Shown here in pieces: positions 7,343 through 45,699 of a DNA stretch of 45,699 bases (position 1 is the stretch's first letter; the number at the start of each line of letters is the position of its first letter). The notes under the pieces are model-generated. The model had not been told where the DNA came from and searched no databases. It saw only the letters and a list, made by a program, of their open reading frames with translations. Where the stretch lies: assembly GCA_903929735.1 (NCBI GenBank), contig CAIYVW010000037.1:1-45699 (forward strand), read 5' to 3'. A program made the position numbers and the translations under genes. The DNA is from an uncultured bacterium. Its GTDB lineage: Bacteria; Patescibacteriota; Minisyncoccia; Phycocordibacterales; UBA9973.

Positions 7343-8365
7343 TTCTGATTTGAAATACTTTTTAGGTAAAATTGAAAAATAATCATCTATATAAGGATGC
7401 ATCATATCACAAGCAACAAAAGCAATAACTACTTCTTTATTTTTATTACGATATTTATTCAAAGTCTTATTTTTTTTCATTTCTTTTATCATTTTTTCTA
7501 TCATAGCTAGTTGCATACCTGTTGAAGGACCAACAAAAAGTCCAAGTCGTATAAGAGCCAAGCTTCTTTCATAAGCTGAAACTGCATCAATAGGAATAAC
7601 TTGGTCTACTATGTCATACCAAGGAATACCAAGCTTAAGTATTGCCTCATCAACACGAGGACCTGGAATAGAAGAACCTTTCTTTATGGAAGATCCAGCT
7701 ATATATATGTCTTTATTTTTAGATTTAAGATAAGAACCTGCTCCATAAATAGTACCAGCTGTACCAATAGTCGAAGCAAAAATAGTAAGATCACCTCCCA
7801 GTTGTGACCAAAGTTCTTTAGCCACATATTCTTCACCAGCACTTGTATTACCAGGATTAATATATTGATTAAGATTATGCCACCCTTTCTTTTTACCTAA
7901 TTGCTTGGCTTCATAGACACCTCCTATTTTACTATGAACATCAGGGCTTCTTGGTCCATGAGAAATCATTAAATCTGCACCAACTAATTTAAGTAATCTT
8001 TTTTTGTGTTCTGGTACATCAGGAGTGATAATCGCATGTAAATTTGGTATTCCAAAATGTCTAGATAAAATAGCCAAAGATAAAACTGTATTACCAGATG
8101 AATACTCAACTAAATGCTTTGTTGAACTTAATGTTTCTTTATCCATCTGTGAAAGCATCTGCCATGACGGCATAGACTTTATATTCCCTAATGGAACAAA
8201 TTGCATAAGTTTTACAAAAATTCTCACTCCATCTTTACTGAACTTATTTACAGAATCAGGCAACTCTACAACAGGCGTCATACCAAGTGAACCTGGAGTA
8301 AGAAAATCAGTTATTGCTTTTTTGCCTTCAAAAACTTTTGAGTTATTGTTTATATTTTTCTTCAT
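7325..8365 (-). CDS. PLP-dependent cysteine synthase family protein
   Basis: TPVVEL, PLP lysine in GNIKS, EYSSGNT, NQY-NP-N, GTAGT, GPSTG. Confidence 0.85.
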   Translation of the reverse strand: MKKNINNNSKVFEGKKAITDFLTPGSLGMTPVVELPDSVNKFSKDGVRIFVKLMQFVPLGNIKSMPSWQMLSQMDKETLSSTKHLVEYSSGNTVLSLAILSRHFGIPNLHAIITPDVPEHKKRLLKLVGADLMISHGPRSPDVHSKIGGVYEAKQLGKKKGWHNLNQYINPGNTSAGEEYVAKELWSQLGGDLTIFASTIGTAGTIYGAGSYLKSKNKDIYIAGSSIKKGSSIPGPRVDEAILKLGIPWYDIVDQVIPIDAVSAYERSLALIRLGLFVGPSTGMQLAMIEKMIKEMKKNKTLNKYRNKNKEVVIAFVACDMMHPYIDDYFSILPKKYFKSEQRLNL

Positions 8366-8404
8366 AAAAAAATTAATTTTATATTTTCTATATTACACCG
8401 TCAG

Positions 8405-8477
8405 AGCCAAAGGCCAGGATCGAACTGGCGACCTACGGTTTACGATACCATCGCTCTACCAACTGAGCTACTTCGGC
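8405..8477 (-). tRNA. tRNA-Thr(CGT)
   Basis: GCCGAAG/CTTTGGC acceptor, AGCTCAGTTGGTAGAGC D-arm, loop ATCGTAA, TTCGATC T-loop; CCA not encoded. Confidence 0.9.
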
Positions 8478-8580
8478 TCTCGCGGGGCAAACTAAAAAAT
8501 ATTAATAAAAACAATCCATATAATAATTTTTACTACAATATAATAACACTATTTGTTCATTTTGACATAATACCCCTAAA

Positions 8581-9069
8581 ATGGTAAATTTTGAGAAAAT
8601 AAATTCTAAAATTATGAAGTTAGAAAATTTCTTATTGAGTTTCAGAAACTCAATAGGTTCCCAGATCTTTAGGAGTTACCTAGACAAGAATGGTAACGAT
8701 GTTCTCAAAGACGGAGATTTGTCTTGTGCTTATTATATATCTTCTATGCTATTACTGCATGGTTTAATAGACAAACCACATTTCACCGTTCAAGGAACAT
8801 TAAAAGCAATGAAGGAAGCTGGCTGGCAAAACATAAAAACTCCTAAGATTGGATCAATTGTTGTCTGGGGTTCTGTTCATCAGAATGGAGCTGACCATAA
8901 ACATTTAGGTCTTTATATAGGAGAACAGCAAGCAATATCAAACCGTAGTTCTCTTGGTATGCCAGGAGAACACCCACTACATTATTCTGGCTTAGATAAA
9001 GACGGAATGAAGAAAAAAGCACCAGTTTTGGAAGTGTATTGGCATTCTGCTTTAGGTAAAGTAGAATAG
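8581..9069 (+). CDS. Putative papain-like Cys/His hydrolase (NlpC/P60 or CHAP-like)
   Basis: DGDLSCAYYISSML Cys motif, GSIVVW and HKHLGLYIG His motif. Confidence 0.55.
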   Translation: MVNFEKINSKIMKLENFLLSFRNSIGSQIFRSYLDKNGNDVLKDGDLSCAYYISSMLLLHGLIDKPHFTVQGTLKAMKEAGWQNIKTPKIGSIVVWGSVHQNGADHKHLGLYIGEQQAISNRSSLGMPGEHPLHYSGLDKDGMKKKAPVLEVYWHSALGKVE

Positions 9070-9075
9070 TTATAT

Positions 9076-9582
9076 ATGGAAACCATTATCTATGCAAATT
9101 ATGAAAAGAGATTACTGTCTATTGATAGTGTCTCTTTTTTTTGTGTTTTTGGAAGAGATGGAACTACTGAAAATAAAATAGAAGGAGATTGGAAAACTCC
9201 AACTGGAAACTTCCCTATTAGAAAAGTATATTACAGAAAAGATCGCCTAGGAGAATTAGTTGGAGATATAGAATACATACCACTATCACCAATAGATGCT
9301 TGGTGTGATGATATAAATAAAAAAGAATATAATACTTTTGTAAATTTACCTTTTGATGGAAATTATGAAAATTTATGGAGAGATGATGAAATGTATGACA
9401 TTATAATCATACTAGGATACAACGACGACCCAATAATACAAAATAAAGGTAGTGCAATATTTATACATGTAACAAAAGAGAATATGGAGTATACGAAGGG
9501 ATGTCTTGCTTTAAGAAAAGAAGATATATATTTCCTGTTAAATAAAATAAATTCAAAAACAAGAATAGAAATTTCTTTATAA
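9076..9582 (+). CDS. L,D-transpeptidase (YkuD) family protein
   Basis: EGDWKTPTG, WCDD and GSAIFIH...TKGC catalytic motif. Confidence 0.88.
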   Translation: METIIYANYEKRLLSIDSVSFFCVFGRDGTTENKIEGDWKTPTGNFPIRKVYYRKDRLGELVGDIEYIPLSPIDAWCDDINKKEYNTFVNLPFDGNYENLWRDDEMYDIIIILGYNDDPIIQNKGSAIFIHVTKENMEYTKGCLALRKEDIYFLLNKINSKTRIEISL

Positions 9583-9588
9583 ATCTTG

Positions 9589-9660
9589 AGCCGTCAGTGA
9601 GAATCGGACTCACGCTCTCTCCCTTACCAAGGGAGTGCTTTGCCACTAAGCTATGACGGC
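9589..9660 (-). tRNA. tRNA-Thr(GGT)
   Basis: GCCGTCA/TGACGGC acceptor, CTCCC-TTGGTAA-GGGAG anticodon arm; atypical T-loop TCCGATT. Confidence 0.9.
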
Positions 9661-9853
9661 TAACATATAAATTCAATTTATTAAGAATACTATAAAATAT
9701 ATCTTTTTCAAAGTTTGCAAATTTTATGATTTCGGGTTATTATAATCGGGTATTGGAAATTATAGTGATATAAAAAAGATATATCATAAAGAAAGATAGA
9801 CTCATAACCTTAAGGTTGCGAGATTAAAGAAATCAGTAATAGCTTTTATATAT

Positions 9854-9924
9854 AGCGGGATAGAGAAATGGTATCTCGTAAGGCTCATAACCTTAAGATC
9901 TTGGTTCGATTCCAAGTCCCGCAA
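9854..9924 (+). tRNA. tRNA-Met(CAT), initiator-like
   Basis: A1:A72 mismatch, A11-U24 pair, TAAGG-CTCATAA-CCTTA (only two G-C pairs next to the loop). Confidence 0.88.
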
Positions 9925-9968
9925 CAATAGGCACGTGACATGCCCAATATGTCTCAAGTGCTTAAAAT

Positions 9969-10042
9969 GTCGATGTAGCTCAGTTAGTGAGAGCGGGCGT
10001 TTCATAAGCGCCAGGTCACAGGTGCAACTCCTGTCATCGACA
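9969..10042 (+). tRNA. tRNA with CAT anticodon (elongator Met or Ile2)
   Basis: GTCGATG/CATCGAC acceptor, GGCGT-TTCATAA-GCGCC anticodon arm; atypical T-loop TGCAACT. Confidence 0.85.
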
Positions 10043-10092
10043 CAATAGAGTAGAATTTTTTTCTATTTTATGTTATCTTGATAAAGTAATTT

Positions 10093-10166
10093 GCAGTCGT
10101 AGCTCAATTGGTTAGAGCACCCGCCTGTCACGTGGGAGGTTGAGGGTTCAAATCCCTTCGACTGCG
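10093..10166 (+). tRNA. tRNA-Asp(GTC); integration target
   Basis: GCAGTCG/CGACTGC acceptor, CCCGC-CTGTCAC-GTGGG anticodon arm, TTCAAAT T-loop, G73. Confidence 0.95.
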
Positions 10167-11777
10167 CAGTATTGGACAAAGCACCCCTAAACGGGTGTTT
10201 TGTTCTTTTGTAGCAAAGGTTTTTTCCAGTTCCAACCGATTTATTTCACTTTCTACAGCTTTTCGCTTTTTCTCTATTGGTTCTAGCCAATCGTTTGGTA
10301 AAATAAAGAGTTTTTGGTCTTTTACTATATAGTTCCAACCAAGTGCAGTAAATATACTTTTCTTATCTTCTATTGTAGTTTCAGGGTCTTCAAACTTGAT
10401 TTTTGCTACTTGTGCAAAGTTGAATACTTGTTCGGTGTATTGTAACCAGTTCAATGCTCGGCTTTCAGTTTCATTGATTTTCTGCTTTAAGATTGCAATT
10501 TTTTCAATCAGTTCATTTTTTCTTGAAGCATACTGCTCATCATTTATTAGATCACGCATACGCATTGTTATTAAGTTATCTAGCTCTCTTTGAGATACCT
10601 CAATATCGCCTAATTGTGTTTTATAAATTAGCTCCCTTTCTCGGACTTCATCTGAGTGTTCTTCTGCAAGTATTCTTAATGCCCAATCTCTAAACTTTTC
10701 AGAAATCGTATATTTGTCTATTTCTTCCTTTATCATATCTTCCATATTTTTCAATGGAATAAAAGCTCTTTGGGAACAATTTTCTGTTCCTTTCTTTCGG
10801 TGTGAACAATAATAAAATGTGTAATCTTTTAATTCGTTTTTAGTTTTTATCAATTTAGTTTTTGTACAAGCTGTAACAGAACTTCCACATTCGCCACATA
10901 TCATTGTGCCAGTGTATGTGAATATATGACTCTTAGCTCTAGGTTTTCCATATCTCCCTAATAATTTTTGAACCATATCAAACTCATCCATTGTAATCAT
11001 TGGTTCGTGTTTACCATTTCCAACTTCTCCATTGTAAATAAAAAGACCAGTATAAAATATATTTGTTAAGATATTATACATAGTACTTTTATTTATTTTT
11101 CCACCTCCACGATGCCGTGTCGTTCGTGTTCTCATACCCCAATCATCACTCATTATTTTTAAGAGCTTAGGAATTGTATATTCTCCAGTTAGCATCATAT
11201 TCCACGCTTTCTTAATAAGTTCAAATCGTTCAGGGTCTTTGATTATGTAATTTTCACCACGAACTTCGTGTTTAGTATTTAAGTATCCGAGAGGAGCCAA
11301 TACTGGAGCTAATCCCTTAATAATTTTTTTATCAATTCCACTCTTTACTGCTTTCGCTAAATCTTTACTAAACTGACTAGACATTCCACTCTCTACACTG
11401 ATGATAATTGCATTGTCAGACGGTAAGTATTCTTTTTCCTTGGTCTGTATTGACTGTACTTTTCCGTCAGCAAGTAATTGTTGTAATATTCCACTCTCAA
11501 GAGGATTACGGGAGAGACGATTTAGATGCCAACAAATAATTCCATTTGCTTCACCCTTTTCTATTCTACGGATCATCTCACTAAATGCGGGTCTATTATT
11601 TGGTAGTTTGGCAGACCGACTCTCAGAGAAACTATCAATAACTTCTAAATCATATCTTGTGATAGTTTTTCTATTTTCTTCGTGTTGTCTGTCTATTGAT
11701 TGCACTTGTCTATCTTCTCCTTCAGAAGATTTACGTGCATATTCAAAGTATTTAATTTTTGATGTTTGTTTTGTCAT
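10128..11777 (-). CDS. Large serine recombinase (integrase)
   Basis: YARKSSE catalytic Ser, RPAF, RLSRN, recombinase domain (APLGY, HEPMIT), Zn ribbon CGECG...YYCS, coiled coil; last 13 codons antisense to tRNA-Asp. Confidence 0.95.
   Translation of the reverse strand: MTKQTSKIKYFEYARKSSEGEDRQVQSIDRQHEENRKTITRYDLEVIDSFSESRSAKLPNNRPAFSEMIRRIEKGEANGIICWHLNRLSRNPLESGILQQLLADGKVQSIQTKEKEYLPSDNAIIISVESGMSSQFSKDLAKAVKSGIDKKIIKGLAPVLAPLGYLNTKHEVRGENYIIKDPERFELIKKAWNMMLTGEYTIPKLLKIMSDDWGMRTRTTRHRGGGKINKSTMYNILTNIFYTGLFIYNGEVGNGKHEPMITMDEFDMVQKLLGRYGKPRAKSHIFTYTGTMICGECGSSVTACTKTKLIKTKNELKDYTFYYCSHRKKGTENCSQRAFIPLKNMEDMIKEEIDKYTISEKFRDWALRILAEEHSDEVRERELIYKTQLGDIEVSQRELDNLITMRMRDLINDEQYASRKNELIEKIAILKQKINETESRALNWLQYTEQVFNFAQVAKIKFEDPETTIEDKKSIFTALGWNYIVKDQKLFILPNDWLEPIEKKRKAVESEINRLELEKTFATKEQNTRLGVLCPILRSRRDLNPQPPT
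10178..10210 (+). terminator. Element-supplied terminator-like hairpin behind tRNA-Asp
   Basis: AAAGCACCC-CTAAAC-GGGTGTTTT followed by a T-rich tract. Confidence 0.5.
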
Positions 11778-11780
11778 ATA

Positions 11781-11917
11781 CCATAAAAGGACGGTTCTGG
11801 TTGACCCAATATACTTACCAAGAGGCAGTTTTACTGGCAGAACCGCCCTTTTATGGACAGTAAGACATATAAAATGCCTCTGGCAAAAATCGTATATGGG
11901 TCAACACTTACATTATA
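11781..11917 (-). promoter_or_regulatory. Structured 5' leader of the integrase with a -10 box
   Basis: TATAAT at 11917-11912; stems 11800-11836 / 11858-11905; loop 11838-11856 complementary (18/19 plus G-U) to 11781-11799. Confidence 0.6.
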
Positions 11918-13136
11918 TACCTTTTTCCAAAGAAGTTAAGTTTATAAACTCAAAGTTTTCAAGTGCATTGTTTACGAAAGATATGCAATTTGAGTAAGGC
12001 AATCCTTGTATAAGTTCTGATGCTAATTCAATCTTTTTATTTAATCTTTCTGGGTGATTTGTATCCCATATATCAAAGATTGCTCCTCGTACTTCTTTTG
12101 CTCCGTGATCTTTTATTGCAATAGCCAGACCATAAGAGATAAGAGCTTTATTCAAGGTATGAGATTTCTCATCTAATTTTTGTGCTTCAGCTAGTATGTG
12201 CAAAAGAAGTGTTAATTTGTCAGTGATAGCAAAAAGAGACAGTTGGTTTTCTGGTCTATTGATAATAGTGTGCCAAGAATTGATAACAAGCGACTTCATT
12301 AAATTAGGAGTAAACAAATCCTTAAAAAGAAGTTGTGTCTCATATTCTCTTCCTAGAAGTGGGTTTATATATTTTCTTGCCGTTTGGTTTTTCTTTATAC
12401 GGTATTCGTATCTGAATATCTCTTTATTTTCAAGATTATGAGAAATAATAAATTGTCTTTCATAATCAATATGCTCTTTGTCGGTACGTTTATTTTTTGG
12501 TCTAAGCGAGTCAGAAACTTTGTCATAGATAGACCAATCTGTTGTTCCTGCATATATATTTAGAACTCGTGAACCTTTCTTGTTTTGTTTGTCTGATATA
12601 TCAAATACCTTGCTAATATCTATTTTGCCAAGTTCGTTTATTATTTCCCTCATTTTGATATTTTTGGGAAGTAATATGTTTTTACAAGCGTGTACGGCTA
12701 CAACTTGGGCTTTTGAGATAACTTCTGTTTCTATTGTTATTCCTACACTTTGTAATGCCGACCTAAGAGCAGAGAATACTCTTTGTTGATCTGTATTGCT
12801 TACTTCTTGAACACTATTCCAATAAAGTAATTTTGGAATAGATAGTTCAATTTTAAGAATATGTTGTATGTCTTTCCTGTCTTTTGTTAATGTTTCAAAA
12901 AGTTCAACCCGTGGCAAGTACTCTTCTTGAAACTTGGGTCTTAATACAAATCTTTTAAGATAAGGGTGTCTAGAGGTACGTTCTGTTTGAGACAACTCTT
13001 CATAAGTTCGTCTTGTTATTTCTGGTAAAAACAAAGAAAAGTTTGAAATCTTAAAAGTACGTGGGCTGTATATTTTTATAATAACTGTGTCCATAGTAAT
13101 TTTTATGTTGTCGGTGGATTTCAAGGAACCCTGCAC
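11913..13136 (-). CDS. Putative rolling-circle replication initiator (phage/plasmid gpII/X- or Rep_trans-like); probable start ATG 13094 (MDTV)
   Basis: MDTV start, ELSIPKLL.WNS..EV, IYDK and FRYEYR motifs recalled from this family; sits in the element core. Confidence 0.6.
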   Translation of the reverse strand: MQGSLKSTDNIKITMDTVIIKIYSPRTFKISNFSLFLPEITRRTYEELSQTERTSRHPYLKRFVLRPKFQEEYLPRVELFETLTKDRKDIQHILKIELSIPKLLYWNSVQEVSNTDQQRVFSALRSALQSVGITIETEVISKAQVVAVHACKNILLPKNIKMREIINELGKIDISKVFDISDKQNKKGSRVLNIYAGTTDWSIYDKVSDSLRPKNKRTDKEHIDYERQFIISHNLENKEIFRYEYRIKKNQTARKYINPLLGREYETQLLFKDLFTPNLMKSLVINSWHTIINRPENQLSLFAITDKLTLLLHILAEAQKLDEKSHTLNKALISYGLAIAIKDHGAKEVRGAIFDIWDTNHPERLNKKIELASELIQGLPYSNCISFVNNALENFEFINLTSLEKGI

Positions 13137-13141
13137 AACAT

Positions 13142-13321
13142 TTACTTTTGATTTTTCAAAAGTTCAGTATGCTGTGCATTTTTATTCGGACGATAAAGTA
13201 CAGAAATCAAACGCAAAAGTTTGATGCCTTGTTCATACGCATCTTTCTTGCTGATTTCTTCTCCAAAATGCTCTTTGTAGAGATTTTGAAACTCTATGAC
13301 TTTTTCATCTGAAAGGTTCAT
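13142..13321 (-). CDS. 59-aa small protein not in the ORF track; candidate recombination directionality factor
   Basis: Translated by hand: MNLSDEKVIEFQNLYKEHFGEEISKKDAYEQGIKLLRLISVLYRPNKNAQHTELLKNQK; fills the gap between co-oriented neighbours. Confidence 0.7.
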   Translation of the reverse strand: MNLSDEKVIEFQNLYKEHFGEEISKKDAYEQGIKLLRLISVLYRPNKNAQHTELLKNQK

Positions 13322-13325
13322 AGAG

Positions 13326-13586
13326 CTATCTGCTATACAACTTATTTTTAAGAGCTTTTAAGTGATCGAAGTACGACCTAGCTTTTACTTCTAACTTATC
13401 TGCAAAGTATTTGTTCGCTGTTTCTTCTATTCCTCTTTGCTTTCGGAATACAAAAAGAGCTTTTCTTGGATCGTTTTTCTCGACCGTTAAAAGCTCATAA
13501 TCCGCACACAGAAGTGCGGTACTGCAACCCAAATCATAAGTGGTGAACACAGATGATGGGTCGCCTATAGAAATCTTTTTACTCAT
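13326..13586 (-). CDS. DUF5659-like small protein
   Basis: TYDLGCSTALLC..ELL...KALFVF...KYF...LKALKNKLY pattern; family assignment from memory. Confidence 0.6.
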   Translation of the reverse strand: MSKKISIGDPSSVFTTYDLGCSTALLCADYELLTVEKNDPRKALFVFRKQRGIEETANKYFADKLEVKARSYFDHLKALKNKLYSR

Positions 13587-13712
13587 AGTGATTTTCTATT
13601 TTAATAGTAATATGAGAGTTTCGTGCTCTCATTTACAGGGGACGAAAAATCACAGAAGTAAAAAACCACAACAGAAATATGTTGTGGCCTCTATGCTTTG
13701 CTCTACTTTATA

Positions 13713-15239
13713 TTATTGTGAAAAATCACCGTCTATATCTTCTTCCACAGGTGCTGTCATTTCAGAAAATACTTCTTCAGAGTCAGAATACCTATTTTGT
13801 GGTTTTTCTTTTTTGTCAGCATTGTACCTTATGTTGAACTTTGCTTTATATACACCGCCTATGTCTGTTTCAAATGGGTCTGTTTCGTTTTGAAATATCT
13901 TACGTAAAATGTCCGTGATTTTTTGTTTTTGTTTCTTCTTACTTTCGCGTTCTTTTTTTGTGACAGGAAGCGTCTGACCATTACCCCTAGCTAGTTTTAA
14001 TAGAAAAGCCCAATTTTCATCAGCTTTCCCATTTCTACCATCTTCACACCCCATCCCCTCAAAAGAAGACGGTTTTGTGCTTTTGCTGTCTGATAAAAGT
14101 ATATTGGTTTCATCGAGGAATGTTATTGAAACTTTTACCCATTCCGTTCTAGGAAACTGTTGTAGAGTGACCTTTTTTCCACTGCTTTTTTTAATGATGT
14201 TTTCTTCAACATTCTTTATATTTATATTGATGTCTTTCTCTTGGATGTTATTTTCAAAACGATGGGTATGCTCGTGCTTAATTGTTTGCTCTTTGTCTTC
14301 CCCAAAAATATGATTAAAATCTTCCTTGTATTTTGGTGCTTCCTTTTTGTAAAAGTTATTAGTTCTTTGTATCTGAAGTTTATTTAGTTTCTCTATTTCA
14401 CCAGAGATTGCTTCAAGAAAGAAAGCATTTGCCACATCTGTTTTATGTATTTCTGAATTATTTTCAAATAAATCTTTATCTGCTATTTCTTCTCTTAATT
14501 CGATGATTTGTGGCACAATAAAATCTTCCCAAACACCATCAAAAAACTCAGGACAGATATACAAACTGGTTATTGGTTCAATAAGTGTCTGATATGCCTT
14601 GTTGTTCTTAATTTCCAAAAATGTATCGTCGGAATTAACAATTTTTATTAACTTATTTCTAAGTATTTTGAAATAATCATTTAATTCGTCTATTCCAGAA
14701 GTGGGAAAGTAAATACCCGAACCATAATACGCTACCAGTATTGCTTCATAGTAAGAATAATAAACTTTTACTAAGTATATTTTTTCATTAACCGATAAAT
14801 CGTCTATTTTAGACAGATTGAAGTTTTTTATAAGTTCAGCTTTTGTTTTTAATTTGTCGATACCTGATTGTTGGTTAAAATCAAAACCACTCAAGAATAA
14901 TAATTTTGAACCTATTTCATTTGCTTTTTTAATAAGTTCTTTTTCTGAAGCTGTTATTTCTTTTTCGTGTAAAATTGCGCTGTCCTCAATATATTTAGTT
15001 AGATTTGTTATTATTACACCCACTAGTGCATCCTCTTCAGCTTTCCATATTCCACGTAATCTATTTGCCTTTGATCTACTGGAAAAATCAAAATCATACT
15101 TTGTGTCATAGATGTTTATCTTGAACTCATCTTGAAAGAACTGCTCCATTGTTCGGTCACTAAAATCAAGGACATATCCACCTTGCATCCCAAACAGTTT
15201 TTCCAGTATTGCTTTGTCGGTTCCTTTAATTTGGCTCAT
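13713..15239 (-). CDS. AbiJ N-terminal-domain-like protein fused to an uncharacterised C-terminal domain
   Basis: LEKLFGMQGGYVLDFSDRT...SKANRLRGIW is the AbiJ_NTD3-type signature; no HEPN RxxxxH seen. Confidence 0.65.
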   Translation of the reverse strand: MSQIKGTDKAILEKLFGMQGGYVLDFSDRTMEQFFQDEFKINIYDTKYDFDFSSRSKANRLRGIWKAEEDALVGVIITNLTKYIEDSAILHEKEITASEKELIKKANEIGSKLLFLSGFDFNQQSGIDKLKTKAELIKNFNLSKIDDLSVNEKIYLVKVYYSYYEAILVAYYGSGIYFPTSGIDELNDYFKILRNKLIKIVNSDDTFLEIKNNKAYQTLIEPITSLYICPEFFDGVWEDFIVPQIIELREEIADKDLFENNSEIHKTDVANAFFLEAISGEIEKLNKLQIQRTNNFYKKEAPKYKEDFNHIFGEDKEQTIKHEHTHRFENNIQEKDININIKNVEENIIKKSSGKKVTLQQFPRTEWVKVSITFLDETNILLSDSKSTKPSSFEGMGCEDGRNGKADENWAFLLKLARGNGQTLPVTKKERESKKKQKQKITDILRKIFQNETDPFETDIGGVYKAKFNIRYNADKKEKPQNRYSDSEEVFSEMTAPVEEDIDGDFSQ

Positions 15240-15306
15240 AGTAATTGTAATTTATCCTTAAACAATTTGATTTTACCATATTTTACTATGAAGATTAAGC
15301 ATTTTT

Positions 15307-15454
15307 TGTTATACTGGATGTGCGCATAAGTCAGTTTTCAATCAAGGTTTATTTACCTTGGTTACCAATCGTGTTCAGCATAGGCACTCTATGTGGGATA
15401 CAGGATTGGTAACCTTTTGGCTACTGACTTGTGCGCACCCACTGGAGTGCCTAT
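15307..15454 (+). promoter_or_regulatory. Extended -10 promoter and structured 5' leader of the mod-res operon
   Basis: TGTTATACT 15307-15315; stems 15320-15335 / 15423-15438 and 15360-15370 / 15404-15414; loop 15380-15397 complementary to 15438-15454. Confidence 0.6.
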
Positions 15455-15491
15455 TTTGCGTTTCAGTGGAAGACATCTGTATTAGCGCACT

Positions 15492-17201
15492 ATGTCTCAA
15501 CAAAATAAATTACAATTACACGAAAAAGAGCTTCTTGCTCGTATTTCAGAACTTGAGTTAGAAATTAAAAAACTTAAGGATAGAAAATATGGACTTATTT
15601 GGGAAGATAAACCAGAAGAGGTTGTTTTGCAATGCAAAGCCAATATCCCTATTTTAAGAGAAGTTAAGAATAGAAAAATTGTTTCTGATAATTTAACACC
15701 AAACAATCTTTTGATTGAGGGTGACAATTATCACTCTCTTTCTGTTTTGAACTATACTCACAGGAAAAGTGTTGACCTTGTATATATTGATCCACCTTAT
15801 AACACAGGAGCTAAAAACTGGAGGTACAACAATGATTATGTTGATGGAGATGATGATTGGAGACATAGTAAATGGGTATCTTATATGAATAGAAGATTGC
15901 TCTTAGCAAAGAATGTACTAAAAGACAAAGGTGTTCTTGTCTGTGCTATTGATGAAAACGAACACGCCAATCTTGGATTACTTATACATCAGATTTTTAC
16001 GAATTACACGATTGACTGCGTTACAGTAGTTCATAATCCTAGAGGTGTTCAGGGTAAAAACTTTTCGTATAATCACGAGTATATCTATTTTGCCTATCCA
16101 AATGATGGAGGAAAATATATTCTAGATGCTGAAAGAGAAGAGACACTTGAAAGAAACTTTAGAGTTGACGGTAGTAACTCGCCAAGATCAACCTCAAAGA
16201 CAATGTTTTTCCCAATTATTATAGAAGATAAAAAGATTGTTGGTTTTGGTGATGTTGCTGATGTGAATTATCACCCAAAGCAACAAACTGAACATAGAAA
16301 GAATGGGCAGATTTACGTATGGCCAATAGATATAAACGGTATTGAAAGAAAGTGGTCTTTTTCTAGAAATAGTATAGAAGAAATTAAAGACCAGTTAATT
16401 TTCAAGAACAGAAAAGATAGATACGAAATCTATAGGCAAAAAGATGCTTCCCCCTATAGAACAGTGTGGATCAATTCTAAATATGATGCTAATGAATATG
16501 GCTCAAAATTAGTTAATTCTATTATTGATACAAACTTTCCTTTTCCCAAATCAATTTATAATGTTCTAGAGTGTGTATCAGCTACTGTTGGGAATAATAA
16601 AACTGCAACAGTTTTAGATTTTTTTGCTGGTTCAGGAACTACAGGTCACGCTGTCCTAGAACTGAATAAGCAAGATGGTGGTAATCGTAAGTTTATTCTT
16701 TGTACAAATAATGAAAATAATATATGTGAAGAAGTTACTTATGAACGTATTAAAAGAGTTATAAAAGGATATAAAAATAAGAAAGGTGAAAAAATTGAAG
16801 GTCTTGGTGGTAATTTATCATATTACAAAACCGATTTAGTGAACATAGAAAAAATACACAAGATTTCAGATGAAGAAAAAATTAAGGTTACTTATCAAGC
16901 TGGTGAAATGATAGCAGTAAGAGAAGATACCTTAAATGAAATAGAAAAAAATGAATGGTGGCAGATTTTTGAAGGAAATAATAATATCACTGCTATTTAT
17001 TTCAAAGAAGATAAAGAGAAAATTAAAGAACTGATAAAAAAACTTATTTCTAAATTTGAGAATGATAAAACTTCCGTAACTCTTTATATTTTCGGTTGGG
17101 GTAAAAATGAATACAAAAATGAATATAGTTCAGGCCTAGTTCGTGTCGAGGACATTCCTGAACCTATACTGGAAGTTTATAAAGAAATAAATCGTTTATA
17201 A
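15492..17201 (+). CDS. mod: Type III R-M methyltransferase subunit Mod (beta-class amino-MTase)
   Basis: NLLIEGDN, YIDPPYNTG, HSKWVSYM, FPFPK, LDFFAGSGTTGHAV. Confidence 0.93.
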   Translation: MSQQNKLQLHEKELLARISELELEIKKLKDRKYGLIWEDKPEEVVLQCKANIPILREVKNRKIVSDNLTPNNLLIEGDNYHSLSVLNYTHRKSVDLVYIDPPYNTGAKNWRYNNDYVDGDDDWRHSKWVSYMNRRLLLAKNVLKDKGVLVCAIDENEHANLGLLIHQIFTNYTIDCVTVVHNPRGVQGKNFSYNHEYIYFAYPNDGGKYILDAEREETLERNFRVDGSNSPRSTSKTMFFPIIIEDKKIVGFGDVADVNYHPKQQTEHRKNGQIYVWPIDINGIERKWSFSRNSIEEIKDQLIFKNRKDRYEIYRQKDASPYRTVWINSKYDANEYGSKLVNSIIDTNFPFPKSIYNVLECVSATVGNNKTATVLDFFAGSGTTGHAVLELNKQDGGNRKFILCTNNENNICEEVTYERIKRVIKGYKNKKGEKIEGLGGNLSYYKTDLVNIEKIHKISDEEKIKVTYQAGEMIAVREDTLNEIEKNEWWQIFEGNNNITAIYFKEDKEKIKELIKKLISKFENDKTSVTLYIFGWGKNEYKNEYSSGLVRVEDIPEPILEVYKEINRL

Positions 17202-17204
17202 TTT

Positions 17205-19502
17205 ATGCTTATACTTAAACCATTTCAAGAAACAGCAATATCTCAGCTTAAAGACAAGTTTTTAACTTTATGGAAACTTGGTGATACAAATGTTAATTTA
17301 ACTTTCAAATCTCCAACTGGTTCGGGAAAAACAATAATGATGGCTCAATTCTTGAGAGATATTGTTTCTGACCCACGATTTGCAAGTGCAGATGTCGGTT
17401 TTATTTGGATTACAAACTCTGACTCTCTCGCAATGCAATCAAAAGATAAACTTTTTACGTATTACGGAGGAGCTAGCGAAAATCCACTTATTGATCTGAA
17501 CAATCTACGAGATGGTGTTATTCCTAAGAACGGGGTTTTCTTTATAAACTGGCAGAAACTTGTATCAAAATCAAAAGATAATCGTAAACTTCGCACTGAG
17601 GGTGAGTCAAATACCACCTTTGATATGTATCTAGAAAATACACATATACTTAAACGTGATGTTGTATTGATTATTGATGAAGAGCATATTGCTTCCGATA
17701 CAGTTCTTGCTAGTGATTTAATTAAGAATGTTATTAAGCCAAGAATTATAATTGGTGTTTCAGCTACCCCTCAAACAAAAGGTATTACTGTAGATGTTGA
17801 CCGTAAGGATGTTGTACGAGAGGGTTTAATAAAAGAAAAAATTGTATTTCAAACAGCTGAAGATTTAGAAAATAAAGAATATAAAAATATGGATCAGGAT
17901 GATGTTCTTCTTACTTTAGCTTTTGAGAAAAGAAACGAGCTTGTTGAATACTATAAAAAACTTAAGATTGATATTAACCCACTTGTTTTAATACAACTTC
18001 CAAATGACGATAAAGCAAGAAAAGATACTGCTAATATGACCAAGCAAGATTTGGTTATAAACTTTCTTAAGTCAAAAGGAATACTCACTCACGAAATAGC
18101 CGTCTGGCTTTCAGACGATAAGGTAAATCTTGCAGACGTAGAAGCAAGTAATTCACCAGTATCATTTTTACTTTTCAAACAAGCAGTAGCTACAGGATGG
18201 GATTGTCCACGAGCAAGTATCTTGGTGATGTTCCGTGAGATTAAAAATCCTACATTTGCTATCCAAACATCAGGTCGTATTTTACGTATGCCACTTGGAG
18301 TACATTTTTCAGTACCAGAACTTAATCTCGGTTATTTATACACAAACTATAAACGAAATGAAGTACTTGTTGGTTATGCAAAATCTGCTGACCAAAATAG
18401 ACCAGCAATAAATGGAAGTTACAGGAAAACGGCTGTAGAACCAATTGTTCTTGACTCAGTGTTTATGAGCCGTACTGACTATAACGATTTAGGTGATAGC
18501 TTCCAAGAAACTTTCAAAAAGGTAGCAAATAATTATTTTGGTATTTTAGAAAAAGATACAAAAGCAAATGTTATAAAAAAGTTCAATGATAAAAAACTTT
18601 CTTTAGACAAAAAAGTTACAAATGGCCTTATTGTTGATGTTGAGATTGATGACTATGATAATTTCAAGCAGGAACTTCTTTCTGAGGGAAGTAGTTATGA
18701 GCAAGAAATGTCACAGCATGATTTAGAGAGATTATATAATCTTTTCTGTTTTAATATCATATCTAAACAAATTGATGAGGATAAAAAGTTTGCTCCAGAG
18801 CGTTCTTGGGGTAAATTAAAAACCGCCTTAAATGTGTGGCTTCTTGGTCTCCTTAAAGAACAGCGATTACAAATCTATCACATTATTGTAAATGATTTCT
18901 TAAAAGTGAACAGTGTTTTGAGTAGCGTAATTGGTAAAGCATTATCTACATACAGACCAATTCGTGAGCAAGAAATAAATCATAAATCTCAAAGATCCAA
19001 ACGAACTGAGCAAATTGAAATACCAAGACCATCCCTTTTCTATACTGACCAATATGAAGAAATGAAAGTAAAGAAAAGTGCAATGCAACCATTCTTTATA
19101 GAAAAAGATTATACAGGCAAGAAAAATGAGACAAACTTTATTAAATCATTAGAAGAAAATGATAGTGTTCTCTGGTGGTATAAAAATGGTGATTTGGGTA
19201 GTGAGTTTTTCTCTATTCCATATTATGATCCAACAACCAACAAAGAAAGTTTGTTTTATCCTGACTGGGTTATAAGAAATGAAAAAGGTGTTTACATAAT
19301 AGATACAAAAGGTGGTGATACAGCAAAGGGGGCAAAAGAACGTGCTGAAGCGCTCCAAGCGTGGATAAAAAGCAAGAAAGGTTATTATGGAGGTATCGCT
19401 GTCCAAGATGGCTCAAATGGCTGGAAAATCAACGATAGTGCTAAATACGAGTATACTACTGCTCTTAAGGGATGGAAAGATTTAGAAGATTTTTTGAATT
19501 GA
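17205..19502 (+). CDS. res: Type III R-M restriction subunit Res (SF2 helicase plus PD-(D/E)xK nuclease)
   Basis: SPTGSGKT, DEEH, SATP, GWDCPRA, QTSGRILR, FYPDW...DTKG; starts 4 nt after the mod stop. Confidence 0.92.
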   Translation: MLILKPFQETAISQLKDKFLTLWKLGDTNVNLTFKSPTGSGKTIMMAQFLRDIVSDPRFASADVGFIWITNSDSLAMQSKDKLFTYYGGASENPLIDLNNLRDGVIPKNGVFFINWQKLVSKSKDNRKLRTEGESNTTFDMYLENTHILKRDVVLIIDEEHIASDTVLASDLIKNVIKPRIIIGVSATPQTKGITVDVDRKDVVREGLIKEKIVFQTAEDLENKEYKNMDQDDVLLTLAFEKRNELVEYYKKLKIDINPLVLIQLPNDDKARKDTANMTKQDLVINFLKSKGILTHEIAVWLSDDKVNLADVEASNSPVSFLLFKQAVATGWDCPRASILVMFREIKNPTFAIQTSGRILRMPLGVHFSVPELNLGYLYTNYKRNEVLVGYAKSADQNRPAINGSYRKTAVEPIVLDSVFMSRTDYNDLGDSFQETFKKVANNYFGILEKDTKANVIKKFNDKKLSLDKKVTNGLIVDVEIDDYDNFKQELLSEGSSYEQEMSQHDLERLYNLFCFNIISKQIDEDKKFAPERSWGKLKTALNVWLLGLLKEQRLQIYHIIVNDFLKVNSVLSSVIGKALSTYRPIREQEINHKSQRSKRTEQIEIPRPSLFYTDQYEEMKVKKSAMQPFFIEKDYTGKKNETNFIKSLEENDSVLWWYKNGDLGSEFFSIPYYDPTTNKESLFYPDWVIRNEKGVYIIDTKGGDTAKGAKERAEALQAWIKSKKGYYGGIAVQDGSNGWKINDSAKYEYTTALKGWKDLEDFLN

Positions 19503-19512
19503 TTATAAAGAA

Positions 19513-20538
19513 TTATTTTTTATTCATATATTTTGTTGATATTTCGTTAGTTATCTTTCTTGCATTACCGTGACTTAAAAGTCCTAAGTATGACTGAACT
19601 GTATCTATCTTGCCCTCTTTTAGTTTAATACGTTTCCACATTCTACGTTTAGTTACTGTTCTAATTACACGATGATTTGGAAAATGTACCCATCCAAGAA
19701 AATCAATTCCAGAAACCAGTGTGTTTATAGATACTTTGTTATGGTGAAGTGATAACTTAAGCTGTTCTTTAAGAAAATTAGATATTTGAGGAAGTATGTT
19801 TTTTTCAATCCATTCTTTGTTTTCAGACATAACAATAAAATCGTCTGCGTAACGAATATAGTATTTTATTTTTAGTTTGTGTTTAATAAATTGATCAAAC
19901 TCATTCATATAGATGTTTACAAGCAATTGTGAGGTGAGATTACCAAGAGGTAATCCGACATCTTCTTTGGTTGAATGAAAACTTTTAATTATTTCTGACA
20001 AAAGTGAGGTAACGTCGTCATCTCTAATATATTTTTTAATAATTTCAATAAGGATATTCTGGTCAATGGAAGCAAAAAACTTTCTTATATCACCCTTCAA
20101 AACCCACACTGTCCTTGTATTATTCTTTGATACTTTGTTAGAGAAAGTCCTAAATCTTTGTATCGCCTTATGTGTTCCTTTATTTTTTCTACAAGAATAT
20201 GAGTCAGAAGTAAAAGTCCTATCAAAAAATGGATAGAGTACACGATAGATAGCGTGGTGAAGTAATCTGTCTCGTACTTTTGCTTTATGTATACTTCGTG
20301 GCTTTGGGTCAGAAATGTTGAAGGCGTAATAATCAGAATGCTTATATGTTTTATTTAAGAGTTCATTGTGTAGGTCTATTATATTATCCATTAAGTTTCG
20401 TTCAAAATCTAAAACATCCTTCCTTAATTTTTTGTCTATTGAAAACTCTTTCCAAGCAAATAGAAGATTATTAAGAGAAATGATATGTTTATATGTATGA
20501 ATAAATTGAATACGAATCATATTAAAAATAGTGTTCAA
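19513..20538 (-). CDS. DGR reverse transcriptase (start TTG 20538 or ATG 20520)
   Basis: PKPRSI, RDRLLHHA, SYSCRKNKGTH, GDIRKFF, GLPLGNLTSQ, YIRYADDF, GIDFLG; ~340 aa with no maturase or endonuclease domain; adjacent TR/VR pair. Confidence 0.95.
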   Translation of the reverse strand: MNTIFNMIRIQFIHTYKHIISLNNLLFAWKEFSIDKKLRKDVLDFERNLMDNIIDLHNELLNKTYKHSDYYAFNISDPKPRSIHKAKVRDRLLHHAIYRVLYPFFDRTFTSDSYSCRKNKGTHKAIQRFRTFSNKVSKNNTRTVWVLKGDIRKFFASIDQNILIEIIKKYIRDDDVTSLLSEIIKSFHSTKEDVGLPLGNLTSQLLVNIYMNEFDQFIKHKLKIKYYIRYADDFIVMSENKEWIEKNILPQISNFLKEQLKLSLHHNKVSINTLVSGIDFLGWVHFPNHRVIRTVTKRRMWKRIKLKEGKIDTVQSYLGLLSHGNARKITNEISTKYMNKK

Positions 20539-20901
20539 ACTCCAACACTTTTGCCAGTACTACATAAACTAAAAACTGTGTATCTTCTATGGTATAGCTA
20601 TTATCAGATTTTACCCAAAGAACATCGTTATTCTCTTGGAATAAAAATAGATAGCTTGTTTGTAGAAATAATGGAAGCCATCTCTTTGGCTGGATTTCTT
20701 ACTAAAGGAGAAAAACAACCTTACGTAAGATTATCAATCAGAAAGGTTGATACTTTGAAAATCTTACTGATGATTTTATGGGAGACAAAATCTATTGATA
20801 ATAAAAAGTACATTGCACTTTCTGTCCCCTTAGATGAGGTAGGAAGAATGCTTGGTGGTTGGAATGGACAGCTTACAAAACAAAACTCTCCCATCACATA
20901 G
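20485..20901 (+). CDS. avd: DGR accessory variability determinant Avd (four-helix bundle); start uncertain
   Basis: LPKEHRYSLGIKID...LDEVGRMLGGW motifs; basic protein of ~130 aa lying between RT and TR. Confidence 0.88.
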   Translation: MFICMNKLNTNHIKNSVQTPTLLPVLHKLKTVYLLWYSYYQILPKEHRYSLGIKIDSLFVEIMEAISLAGFLTKGEKQPYVRLSIRKVDTLKILLMILWETKSIDNKKYIALSVPLDEVGRMLGGWNGQLTKQNSPIT

Positions 20902-20910
20902 AAAGGAGAG
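20886..20910 (-). other. Hairpin in the TR 3' spacer, antisense to the avd stop
   Basis: Minus strand CTCTCC...GGAGAG followed by TTTTGTTTT. Confidence 0.5.
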
Positions 20911-20922
20911 AAATGAAAAGAT

Positions 20923-21048
20923 TTGCGAGAACAGCAGACGGGTTATTAGCGTTCCAATCATTCTCAAGCCAATTGTAGTTCCAGTTCCACTTACCATCGT
21001 TCCAGTACAAGTACAGGACGTAACGGTTACCGTTAGAGTTCCGAAGAA
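20923..21048 (-). repeat. DGR template repeat (TR), 126 bp
   Basis: Ungapped match to 21407-21532; rich in AAC/AAT codons; all 19 mismatches fall at minus-strand adenines. Confidence 0.97.
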
Positions 21049-21051
21049 ACA

Positions 21052-21269
21052 TATAGAGTATCATCTATTCCACCACCTCTTGAATACTCTCAAGGTTGTA
21101 TATTACTCGTGATAATAATCACTCAATACTCTATACCAAGTATCTTCATTTTTTTGAAGTTTCTGCATACATCACTCTACTTGAAACCTTAATCTCAAGT
21201 ATTCTGAATGTATGGATACTGGTTTCGGTAGCGGAAAATCGTAATCGTCCGCATATTCACCTACTACCG
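21052..21269 (-). ncRNA. Structured 5' region of the putative DGR template RNA
   Basis: Nested helices, e.g. 21052-61/21126-35 (10 bp), 21166-72/21208-14, 21178-84/21195-201, 21226-31/21264-69; extended -10 TGTTAAACT just upstream. Confidence 0.6.
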
Positions 21270-21294
21270 TATTTAGTTTAACACAAAAAAATAA

Positions 21295-21316
21295 CCCCTG
21301 TATAAAAATACAGGGG
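21295..21316 (-). terminator. Perfect hairpin after the DGR target (terminator and/or homing cruciform)
   Basis: CCCCTGTAT-TTTT-ATACAGGGG followed by TTATTTTTT on the minus strand. Confidence 0.65.
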
Positions 21317-21371
21317 CGGAGGATAAAGTACCTCCAATTTTTTTTCGCGAAATGCACAAAGGACAAAGGGT

Positions 21372-22031
21372 CTAAGAAACCAAAGTTTCAGAAACCAGAG
21401 TGCTACTTGCGAGAACAGCAGACGGGCCATCAGCGAACCAATCACGCCCAAGCCAATAGTAGTTCCAGTCCCACTCACCACCGTCCCAGCACAAGTACAG
21501 GACGTAACGGCGACCGCCAGAGTCCCGAAGAACAGTTCCATCAAAGAAAATAAAAGTTGTATTCCCGTTTGTTTTTTCTTTCCATTTTTCAGGAATGAGG
21601 ATTTGGTTTTCCCAAAGTGTTTTGAAAATACCAGCATCCAAACGAATACGATTTGTTTTTTCTTTGAGACGTTTGAGTTTGTCTTCACCTTTAATGATTT
21701 TCTCTCCTTTTTCCAAGGTTGAGTCAAACATAACCTCAGTTAGGTCAATTTCGGTGAGAGCAATTGCTCTTTCGTCTTGTTCTTCAATAGACCATCCGTC
21801 ACCAATAAAGGTTTTGGGATCAAACAGGATAGAGCGGTCAATGCTGATTACCCTTGGGCTATCAACTATAACTTTTCCACCATTTTTAAGGAATGCAGTA
21901 AATTGTTTACCTGCTTCCGTAGGGTCATCTACAATCTTTTGTAAAATTGTGTGTTCCAAGACATCCCAATTAACATTGGTTGCAAGGATTTGGATAACCG
22001 TGTGAGACTGACCAATAGATGGCTTACTCAT
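21372..22031 (-). CDS. DGR target protein with C-terminal variable region (219 aa from ATG 22031; ORF track start 22061)
   Basis: VR encodes LRDSGGRRYVLYLCWDGGEWDWNYYWLGRDWFADGPSAVLA; SD AAGGAGGT 5 nt before ATG 22031. Confidence 0.92.
   Translation of the reverse strand: MSKPSIGQSHTVIQILATNVNWDVLEHTILQKIVDDPTEAGKQFTAFLKNGGKVIVDSPRVISIDRSILFDPKTFIGDGWSIEEQDERAIALTEIDLTEVMFDSTLEKGEKIIKGEDKLKRLKEKTNRIRLDAGIFKTLWENQILIPEKWKEKTNGNTTFIFFDGTVLRDSGGRRYVLYLCWDGGEWDWNYYWLGRDWFADGPSAVLASSTLVSETLVS
21407..21532 (-). repeat. DGR variable repeat (VR)
   Basis: 107/126 identical to TR; minus-strand changes A>G x14, A>T x3, A>C x2. Confidence 0.97.
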
Positions 22032-22075
22032 AATTACCTCCTTTTTTAATAAGAACAACATCGTTCTTGGTTTAT

Positions 22076-22105
22076 ATTATAGCATAATATAACACATTAT
22101 GTCAA
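22076..22105 (-). promoter_or_regulatory. Consensus sigma70 promoter of the DGR target
   Basis: TTGACA (22105-22100), 18-nt spacer containing TGn, TATAAT (22081-22076). Confidence 0.75.
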
Positions 22106-22206
22106 TATGACTAGTTTTTCTGATTTTTCCTTTAGATTTGGTATATAAATATAACCGTTATGTTCCCTTACCCTAGTTCCCACTTCGTCCACTAAATCGC
22201 GCAAAT

Positions 22207-22230
22207 AAAAAGAGGCTTATGCCTCTTTTT
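22207..22230 (+). terminator. Intrinsic terminator, probably the displaced original tRNA-Asp terminator
   Basis: AAAAAGAGGC-TTAT-GCCTCTTTTT directly after the right GCGCA core. Confidence 0.75.
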
Positions 22231-22311
22231 GCTTATTTGACTTAAAGCTAGATTAATAGTAATTTAAGTTTAAATAAACAGTTCTAGTATTAACTTTAAA
22301 TTCTTTGAAAA

Positions 22312-45183: not shown

Positions 45184-45199
45184 TTAATTAATAATAATG

Positions 45200-45286
45200 C
45201 GGAACCAGCGAGATTCGAACTCGCGAGGGCTTTTACACCCTGCCTCTTTAGCAAAGAGGTACGTTAGACCACTCTGACACGGTTCC
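45200..45286 (-). tRNA. tRNA-Ser(GCT)
   Basis: GGAACCG/TGGTTCC acceptor, CCTCT-TTGCTAA-AGAGG anticodon arm, long variable arm, G73. Confidence 0.93.
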
Positions 45287-45512: not shown

Positions 45513-45599
45513 GGAGGCGTGGATGAGTGGTTTAAATCAACAGTTTACTAAACTGTCGAACCTTTACCGGTTCCGTGAGTTCGAATCTCACCGCCTCCG
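45513..45599 (+). tRNA. tRNA-Ser(ACT), rare A34 anticodon
   Basis: GGAGGCG/CGCCTCC acceptor, ACAGT-TTACTAA-ACTGT anticodon arm, long variable arm, TTCGAAT T-loop, G73. Confidence 0.88.
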
Positions 45600-45699
45600 C
45601 ATAACAAGATTTTTATCGCACAAAAGGTCAAATTCCTTTTGTTTATCAATAGTTTTCAGAGGTTCTAACCGTTTACTAATTGCGTTTACCTCTTTTGAA

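Follow-up and report, generated by a model that had tools for sequence, protein, structure and literature searches.

The window analysed here, a 45,699-nucleotide stretch that makes up contig C37 of an uncultured Patescibacteria genome, carries within some 12 kb a serine integrase, a Rep-like protein, a type III restriction-modification (R-M) system, an Abi-like gene (p508) and a diversity-generating retroelement (DGR). This raises the question whether these genes constitute one undescribed system, as an initial annotation had proposed, or are separate passengers of a common carrier. Comparison with related genomes shows that positions 10169-22203 are a precise insertion at the 3' end of a tRNA-Asp gene and form a discrete non-phage integrative element, a genuine carrier of a fairly new kind rather than one new machine for defence. 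The explanation that we consider probable, taken as a whole, is an integrative cargo-carrier element with a Rep-like protein, p407, and with independent R-M, p508 and DGR modules; it would belong to a family of small integrative elements that extends across the Patescibacteria and has R-M as its usual cargo.

The host genome has 763 kb in 52 contigs, at about 32% G+C, and the element is flanked by ordinary chromosome, with a release factor, a pyridoxal phosphate enzyme, a YkuD transpeptidase and a tRNA cluster on the left and a PIN-PhoH protein, GatA, GatC and LigA on the right. The 5-bp sequence GCGCA at 10164-10168 (attL) is repeated at 22199-22203 (attR) and, apart from limited arm similarity, this common core is the sole identity between the two sites. 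A 70-bp arm inside attR is also kept in three metagenome relatives (L117, L118 and L119). Among six PhoH loci fetched from congeners none has the element; four show a rearranged neighbourhood, and the other two, in G415 (L057) and G417 (L058), are syntenic empty sites, where tRNA-Asp is followed by GCGCA, an A-rich terminator region and the PhoH-like gene, with the gene order of the window flanks on both sides and about 0.5 kb in place of the window's 12 kb. A second copy of the element is present in G429 (L094/L112), with 89% identity across 10083-13611 and 93% across 15236-22211. Past 22211 the similarity is lost and the flank is different DNA. The attL and attR of the G429 copy agree with those of the window, and the matching attB is found in G415 and G417. 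The unit of about 12 kb with defined ends described in the initial annotation is therefore confirmed by the repeat, the empty sites and the second copy, and the syntenic empty attB sites are at odds with a stable chromosomal locus. The element-borne hairpin directly 3' of the tRNA may be a replacement terminator for tRNA-Asp.

Logan contigs from four lake-water runs of one study, with 31 letters required on each side of a joint, provided a further hint. One contig of run X1, a lake metagenome, joins 10163 to 22199 and skips exactly 12,035 bases, five letters fitting either side; because its shorter side counts 25 letters, below the bar, it is a weak sign only of an empty site in the same community. 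In runs X2-X4 parts of the stretch have no contig cover. Within the genus, p407 occurs in 10 of 92 other genomes, and it was not found in five congeners that are 95-99% complete.

Scans with Pfam and PHROG gave no capsid, tail or Zot match in the element and no PHROG structural match at all, and the Zot-type ATPase (PF05707) had no match in the whole 763-kb genome, which is 100% complete by markers, though split into 52 contigs. With VirB4 likewise absent and VirD4-like matches borderline only, the description of the element as lacking capsid, tail, Zot and conjugation genes holds. The borderline matches belong to two adjacent open reading frames (ORFs) of 736 and 474 aa on contig C19 (17690-21519), which score 20.1-20.2 bits against VirD4/TraG at a cut-off of 20.1.

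Table 1. Features of the element and its junctions, by position in the window (aa, amino acids; TR, template repeat; VR, variable repeat).
Feature	Position	Strand	Evidence or remark
Host tRNA-Asp(gtc), integration target	10093..10167	+	ARAGORN; junctions compared with G415/G417 empty sites
Large serine recombinase (integrase), 549 aa	10128..11777	-	Pfam Resolvase, Recombinase, Zn_ribbon_recom; PHROG 95 integrase 6.1e-63
Inserted element	10169..22203	.	12,035 bp; missing from syntenic G415 and G417 sites; G429 homology ends 22211
Element-borne hairpin and T run directly 3' of tRNA	10174..10205	+	Terminator scan
p407, 407 aa, putative rolling-circle initiator (or relaxase), G2P/Phage_CRI-like family	11913..13136	-	Family alignment A2; PF05144 in relatives
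59-aa core protein	13142..13321	-	Kept in relatives; no family match (Pfam, PHROG, NCBIfam)
DUF5659 protein, 86 aa	13326..13586	-	Pfam PF18903 3.9e-09
p508, three-module protein in swap-prone slot (~13612-15235)	13713..15239	-	Module recurrence; replaced in G429
Mod, type III methyltransferase, 569 aa	15492..17201	+	Pfam N6_N4_Mtase 1.2e-26; PADLOC MTase_III 1.5e-73
Res, type III restriction subunit, 765 aa	17205..19502	+	Pfam ResIII 7.5e-16; PADLOC REase_III 2.2e-16
Distal cargo slot, whole DGR cassette (2.6 kb)	19484..22130	.	Homology breakpoints versus L117, L118
DGR reverse transcriptase	19513..20538	-	Pfam RVT_1 8.8e-24; PHROG 1423 3.5e-103; PADLOC RT 4.3e-55
Avd accessory protein	20485..20901	+	PHROG 3206 'Avd protein of DGR' 1.3e-11; strand opposite reverse transcriptase, TR and target
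TR	20923..21048	-	126 nt, 33 adenines, rich in AAC codons
Terminator-like hairpin 3' of target	21294-21317	-	Terminator scan
DGR target, 219 aa (ORF open back to 22061)	21372..22031	-	C-terminal ~150-aa conserved domain holds VR
VR, 3' end of target gene	21407..21532	-	126 nt; 19 TR mismatches, all at TR adenines
Sigma-70 promoter, 12-of-12 consensus, extended TG, upstream of target	22076..22105	-	Consensus scan only
attR arm, conserved	22131..22203	.	Ends in GCGCA core 22199-22203; kept in G429, L117, L118, L119
Host terminator beyond attR	22206-22231		Terminator scan

Whether the modules are coupled can be read from the relatives. Sister elements stand at tRNA-Asp in other genomes too. L117 and L118 are the same element without the DGR (87-95% protein identity for the integrase, 88-94% for the Rep), with breakpoints at 19484/19509 and 22131/22134. 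The distal slot thus delimited holds the DGR in the window, G429 and G430, a NUDIX and a serine hydrolase gene in L117, a proteasome-like gene in L118 (2602-3396; Pfam Proteasome 5e-11), and an inverted remnant of reverse transcriptase (RT), avd and TR in L119. G430 has lost the equivalent of 13132-18440 and retains the DGR, its integrase and p407 standing without an intact R-M. The same DGR cassette occurs outside p407 elements in L099 (beside EF-Tu), L100 and G075, and in those genomes of our phylum sample that have both p407 and a target-like gene the two lie at separate places. Since every pairing of modules is broken in one relative or another, and the cassette is also found outside the elements, R-M, p508 and the DGR are best regarded as independent cargo; they travel together, and the comparison indicates that they act independently. 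Other cargo is indeed found with this backbone, the p407 family carrying varied R-M and the sister elements other slot genes.

Two kinds of reduced relatives were also seen. The L119 sister (7728-13037, about 5.3 kb) has the genes for integrase, Rep, Avd and RT and a TR-like ORF rich in Asn (9208-9462) but lacks the target gene, which may have been lost or be located at another place in that genome. Orphan targets, 72-82% identical, stand beside tRNA-Asp in L092 (8465-9418), L096 (9899-10750) and L097 (10004-10555). At these three loci attR, promoter, target and terminator are all that is left, TR, avd, RT, Rep and integrase being absent; similarity to the window ends at about 21270-21286, and the attR arm has decayed in L092. 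The loci look like remnants of decayed elements. The possibility that the target already resided on the chromosome and that the element inserted beside it was rejected, the empty sites lacking the target and L092 keeping a decayed attR arm.

The DGR is complete, as had been claimed: RT, an Avd-like gene, TR and VR are all present, with the adenine-specific pattern. The RT reads LGNLTSQ at residue 198, following the pattern [I/L]GxxxSQ that we take to mark DGR reverse transcriptases, and YADD at residue 230. Avd scores below the curated cut-offs of NCBIfam DivGenRetAVD (53 bits versus 80) and Pfam bAvd (35.9 versus 40). The avd gene runs opposite to the RT gene, the two standing head to head, an arrangement seen also in L063, L093, L094, L099, L100 and L119, and the order target, TR, reversed avd, RT recurs in the cassette relatives. 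Because the 3' end of avd abuts the TR, a TR transcript running on toward RT would be antisense to avd.

All mismatches between TR and VR fall at TR adenines in each of the three copies (19/19 in the window, where they lie mostly in AAC codons, 15/15 in G429 and 21/21 in G430). The three TRs differ from one another at only 1-3 non-A positions, each change being mirrored in the copy's own VR, and the VRs differ at 18-23 positions, 17-20 of them TR-A sites. The mirrored changes mean that information flowed from TR to VR after the copies diverged, and they show that mutagenic homing must, on sequence grounds, have gone on after that divergence. TR and VR have an invariant 3' block in common. No stable hairpin was found 3' of the VR (z 0.76); hairpin-type repeats at the VR end are present in only 34% of DGRs, according to Wu et al. 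(2018, PMC5758913). VR variants were absent from the Logan contigs, a result that is uninformative since contigs drop rare variants.

The VR begins about 55 codons before the end of the target gene and stops about 13 codons short of it, and the protein consists of a variable domain of about 150 aa and some 55 further residues, with no effector domain and, by eye, no signal peptide or transmembrane (TM) segment. A profile of 51 homologues found 2,971 cluster representatives at E <= 0.001, 1,505 at <= 1e-10 and 399 at <= 1e-30, many of them matching only the C-terminal domain of about 150 aa. Neither Pfam, NCBIfam and PHROG nor a PDB sequence search, in which the A3 profile stayed at chance level, yielded a match, and the nearest Atlas clusters are all unnamed. 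The target family has no relatives among 2.9 million viral contigs, which speaks against the target homologues being virion proteins. The role of sensor or counter-defence factor that had been suggested for the target is pure inference. As for the consensus promoter upstream of it, the total of promoter-like sites in the scan was no higher than in shuffles.

The remaining cargo lies between the small core genes and the DGR. Mod and Res are co-oriented with a 3-bp gap and form a type III R-M pair of predicted activity, and this part of the initial annotation agrees with the PADLOC and Pfam matches. The pair is retained at 94-99% identity in G429 and L117, has for the most part been deleted from G430 and is missing in L119. 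For p508 the picture is one of recurring pieces. Residues 1-115 recur fused to Abi_C (P0111), Mrr_cat (P0121, P0122) or Trans_reg_C, residues 120-342 recur behind an AbiTii domain, and residues 338-508 recur behind other N-termini. In L118 the slot is filled by a full homologue (75% identity) and in L117 by a partial one (50%). G429 has in its place an unrelated 498-aa gene, which has a piece in common with one of the p508 module partners. To judge from these recurrences, p508 has the shuffled architecture typical of conflict genes. p508 itself has no match in Pfam, PADLOC, PHROG or NCBIfam and contains no AbiJ_NTD, Abi_C or recognised effector domain, so that the pairing of an AbiJ N-terminal domain with a C-terminal Abi_C HEPN domain, by which AbiJ is defined, is not seen in it. 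Of the AbiJ-NTD fusion that had been proposed, then, the N-terminal stretch of about 115 residues shared with Abi_C proteins stands, and the Pfam AbiJ-NTD domain does not. For a p508 homologue that is 67% identical (P0005) the stored structural model is poor (pTM 0.29) and gave sub-threshold look-alikes only; it was not used.

The integrase, with all three Pfam domains above their cut-offs and its PHROG 95 match, is a large serine recombinase as first annotated. Its ORF crosses attL, the last 12 or so residues being encoded by the antisense strand of the tRNA. Translation across the junction gives 549 aa in the integrated state and 571 aa in a simulated excised circle, so that the C-terminal tail is predicted to differ between the two states. 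Four more large serine recombinase genes, 33-36% identical to that of the element, are present in the genome on contigs C47 (two), C25 and C49, and none of them is accompanied by homologues of p407, p59 or DUF5659.

The protein p407 lies next to the integrase, and its true start is probably a conserved Met at residue 14. In an alignment of 21 family sequences (A2), an Asp-Thr pair near the N-terminus is invariant, and Y204-D-K206 and R242-x-E-x-R246 are invariant or nearly so, Y204 being invariant in all 21. M13 gene II reads AYLK near residue 197, where Tyr-197 is, we assume, the nicking residue. Four of the 21 members match PF05144 (Phage_CRI, the N-terminal domain of the filamentous-phage G2P initiator), and the L044 member reaches 30.0 bits over residues 51-246 against a curated cut-off of 21.7. 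A PDB sequence search with the A2 profile returned chance-level matches only. It is reasonable to regard the p407 family as a putative distant branch of the filamentous-phage G2P rolling-circle initiators, the Rep-like call being transitive: the term used in the initial annotation is sustained by way of the family relatives and not by a match of the window protein. In a large protein database the family has 275 matches, of which the best 120 are all unnamed, and among the 2.9 million viral contigs of IMG/VR it is found at two loci (L113 and L114). In L114, p407 is followed by a serine integrase at the start of the contig.

The two small core genes noted earlier, the 59-aa gene and the DUF5659 gene, are likewise upheld, the former by its conservation in relatives (80-97% identity in G429, L117 and L118; about 39% in L029 and L045) and the latter by Pfam. 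In many other members of the family the position of DUF5659 is held by a SpoVG-like protein (SpoVG PF04026 in L035).

How far the family extends was assessed in a sample of the phylum, in which 35 of 400 other genomes have p407 homologues, patchily distributed and with one match per genome. Twenty of these loci were fetched and mapped. A serine recombinase lies within the fetched stretch at 16 of the 20, and at eight its ORF overlaps a tRNA (Asn at three, Gln at two, and Gly, His and Glu at one each), the overlap seen in the window thus recurring at L030-L032, L034-L036, L044 and L045. The neighbours of p407 are either a SpoVG-like protein, as at 10 loci, or DUF5659, together with an excisionase-like protein of HTH_17 type and in many cases an XRE repressor; the small proteins were confirmed as HTH_17, SpoVG and HTH_3, soluble helix-turn-helix (HTH) and DUF types without hydrophobic coat-like segments. 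Between integrase and p407 the family carries R-M genes. All 10 large cargo proteins that were scanned, from eight loci, have R-M domains (MmeI/Eco57I-like; AlwI with a D12 methyltransferase; GmrSD with an EcoRI methylase; BpuJI; HSDR_N/N6_Mtase; ResIII with an endonuclease domain), type III Mod/Res homologues of the window pair stand beside p407 at L027, L035, L036 and L045 with about 40% identity, and R-M genes adjoin p407 at no fewer than 14 of the 20 loci when cluster mates are counted. None of the 20 has an RT. Beyond p407 and SpoVG, a protein of 330-390 aa without Pfam match is encoded at L029 (10603-11754), L043 (4042-5217), L044 (11019-12149), L033 (10953-11996) and L031 (10977-11972), and it may be a further backbone gene.

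We propose that the recombinase catalyses both integration and excision, and that p407, like G2P, would nick an origin on the excised circle, leading either to rolling-circle replication or to a single strand for transfer. The small DUF5659/SpoVG-type and HTH proteins would serve as DNA-binding accessories. The R-M cargo would protect the cell and at the same time make loss of the element costly. Two further slots appear to be exchangeable, one holding the domain-shuffled, Abi-like set represented by p508 and the other, on the attR side, a self-contained DGR cassette with its own predicted promoter, in which error-prone reverse transcription of the TR would rewrite adenine-templated VR positions in a small, apparently cytoplasmic variable-domain protein.

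Several observations weigh against this explanation. The p407 of the window has no match of its own in Pfam (even at E 10), PHROG or NCBIfam; a profile comparison (hhalign) with IKe gene II was not significant (probability 1%, E 0.047), a phmmer search of 141 family members with the gene II proteins of M13 and IKe stayed above E 0.1 throughout, and among 50,697 phage and 72,556 plasmid records tblastn found no counterpart of p407. The Rep call is founded on homology of sequence that is transitive, and the activities of Mod/Res, p508 and the integrase are predicted ones. The steady pairing of p407 with R-M could mean that it serves the R-M module and not replication. The X1 contig could stem from a related strain that never carried the element, and the excised circle, or attP junction, was not seen in the Logan contigs of the four runs, which cannot show rare forms. 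The 6.5-kb contig of L042 has no terminal overlap and so provides no evidence of a free plasmid form, and with VirB4 missing from the genome no transfer machinery was identified.

These points have to be set against what other explanations would have to accommodate. A coupled defence or counter-defence system, in which the DGR-diversified protein acts as a programmable sensor or neutraliser together with the type III R-M and/or the Abi-like protein, seems to us very unlikely. Physical linkage of the modules is seen both in the window and in G429, and protein-search tables place p508-like and target homologues on contigs of matching size (19,196 and 37,063 bp), possibly the same ones; moreover, a target without signal peptide or TM segment could have an intracellular binding role, and DGR-diversified putative antigen sensors in multicellular bacteria have been published (PMC10907252). 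The relatives nevertheless dissolve the linkage: the element occurs without the DGR (L117, L118), the DGR occurs without an intact R-M (G430, L119, L099, L100, G075), the target occurs alone (L092, L096, L097) and p508 is swapped in G429, while the target has a consensus promoter and a terminator of its own and no effector domain. The claim of a single undescribed system is thus not supported. Somewhat apart stands the notion that the target is an intracellular, DGR-diversified 'free antibody', borne by the element and neutralising changing proteins of invaders or of host defence, the orphan copies being frozen, selected specificities. We think this unlikely; if true, Patescibacteria would be passing one another a diversifying module for recognition, ready for use, by way of tiny integrative elements that replicate as rolling circles.

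The link of the Rep family to Phage_CRI, and so to the G2P of inoviruses, together with the integrase, the small size of the element and the two family members on IMG/VR contigs, could suggest a defective filamentous-phage-like prophage, or a satellite that uses a helper's virion and whose G2P-like Rep makes single-stranded DNA for packaging. This is highly improbable in our view, given that neither the element nor the 763-kb genome has a Zot-type ATPase, that the small proteins are of HTH, SpoVG and DUF5659 types without coat-like hydrophobic segments, that PHROG finds no structural protein, and that 2.9 million viral contigs hold the Rep family at two loci and the target at none. The element lacks the Zot-like ATPase and small hydrophobic coat proteins of inoviruses, and the earlier suggestion of a satellite has no support. 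The same family data bear on whether p407 is instead an accessory of mobile R-M units, with a nuclease, controller or homing function, in which case the element would be an integrase-borne R-M island replicating only with the chromosome. Its place directly beside R-M genes at 14 or more of the 20 loci, including L027, L039 and L040 where no integrase was seen within 10 kb, and the missing family match of the window protein speak for such a role, which is however very improbable, as p407 adjoins the integrase and not the R-M in the window, G429, L030, L031 and L037, as L119 and G430 keep integrase and p407 without an intact R-M, and as one member exceeds the Phage_CRI cut-off and the Tyr is invariant. 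The cargo-carrier element with independent modules remains the explanation that we prefer.

Set beside known systems, this cargo-carrier element has partial counterparts. R-M systems can form mobile units, linked to integrases at tRNA-proximal hot spots with differing R-M types at equivalent positions in related elements; here, by comparison, the R-M slot belongs to a conserved backbone that recurs across the phylum and includes genes for a Rep-like protein and for small proteins that bind DNA. The streptococcal integrative and mobilizable elements (IMEs), as Coluzzi et al. (2017, PMC5357655) describe them, are also small, use a site-specific serine or tyrosine integrase, often at tRNA 3' ends, and encode a single Rep-like protein of rolling-circle plasmid or phage families, with variable cargo and no transfer apparatus of their own. 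The window element differs from them in its occurrence in Patescibacteria, in a divergent G2P/Phage_CRI-like Rep in place of Rep_trans, Rep_2 or PHA00330, in the lack of an evident conjugative helper (VirB4 being absent), in its R-M-dominated cargo, and in a serine integrase that targets a tRNA end and whose ORF reads across the junction. Of the features of an IME, integrase and Rep-like gene are present, and no oriT is known.

As for the DGR, Wu et al. (2018, PMC5758913) place such elements on chromosomes as well as on phages and plasmids, and a non-phage integrative carrier of DGRs has already been published in the integrative and conjugative elements (ICEs) of Bacteroides. Like the window element, the latter carry a DGR for a non-phage protein on a tRNA-integrated (tRNA-Lys), non-phage element that spreads horizontally (10.1101/2024.11.15.621889); they are large and self-transmissible, and their targets are type V pilus tip adhesins, whereas the window element has 12 kb, no conjugation genes and a target without export signal. 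Closest in host are the 'clade 2' DGRs of the candidate phyla radiation (CPR), which share the Patescibacteria host, the adenine-specific TR/VR and a putative Avd gene (Roux et al., 2021, PMC8144416; Wu et al., 2018, PMC5758913), and whose targets have no recognisable TM or conserved domain (PMC8144416), a description that the window target fits. In these two surveys clade 2 DGRs are almost entirely 'cellular-encoded', with essentially no information on links of CPR DGRs to mobile elements, in contrast to the window cassette inside a delimited mobile element with empty sites. Seen against the known IMEs and DGR-bearing ICEs, the window element thus represents a possible new family of carriers, in a phylum from which such carriers were not described, and it sets CPR DGRs in a new context. 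Our literature searches, outside whose scope lay supplements and subscription journals, retrieved no description of such elements in Patescibacteria.

DGRs are abundant in the CPR and have been called 'cellular'; here one of them is a discrete 2.6-kb module in an element whose ends are exact and for which both empty sites and sister copies were seen. The possible new family of mobile elements combines a tRNA-reading serine integrase with a G2P-like Rep and SpoVG, DUF5659 and HTH proteins, and mostly bears a different R-M in each element. To our knowledge, few plasmids or genetic tools are known for Patescibacteria, and the small integrase, the pair of att sites and the candidate replicon could serve as such tools. 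The orphan targets that persist without the RT open the role of the variable protein to study, as a natural experiment.

Away from the element, two divergent tRNA-Ser genes lie close together near the right end of the window (45199-45286 and 45513-45600), and ARAGORN gives one of them the anticodon ACT, which is presumably unusual for bacteria.

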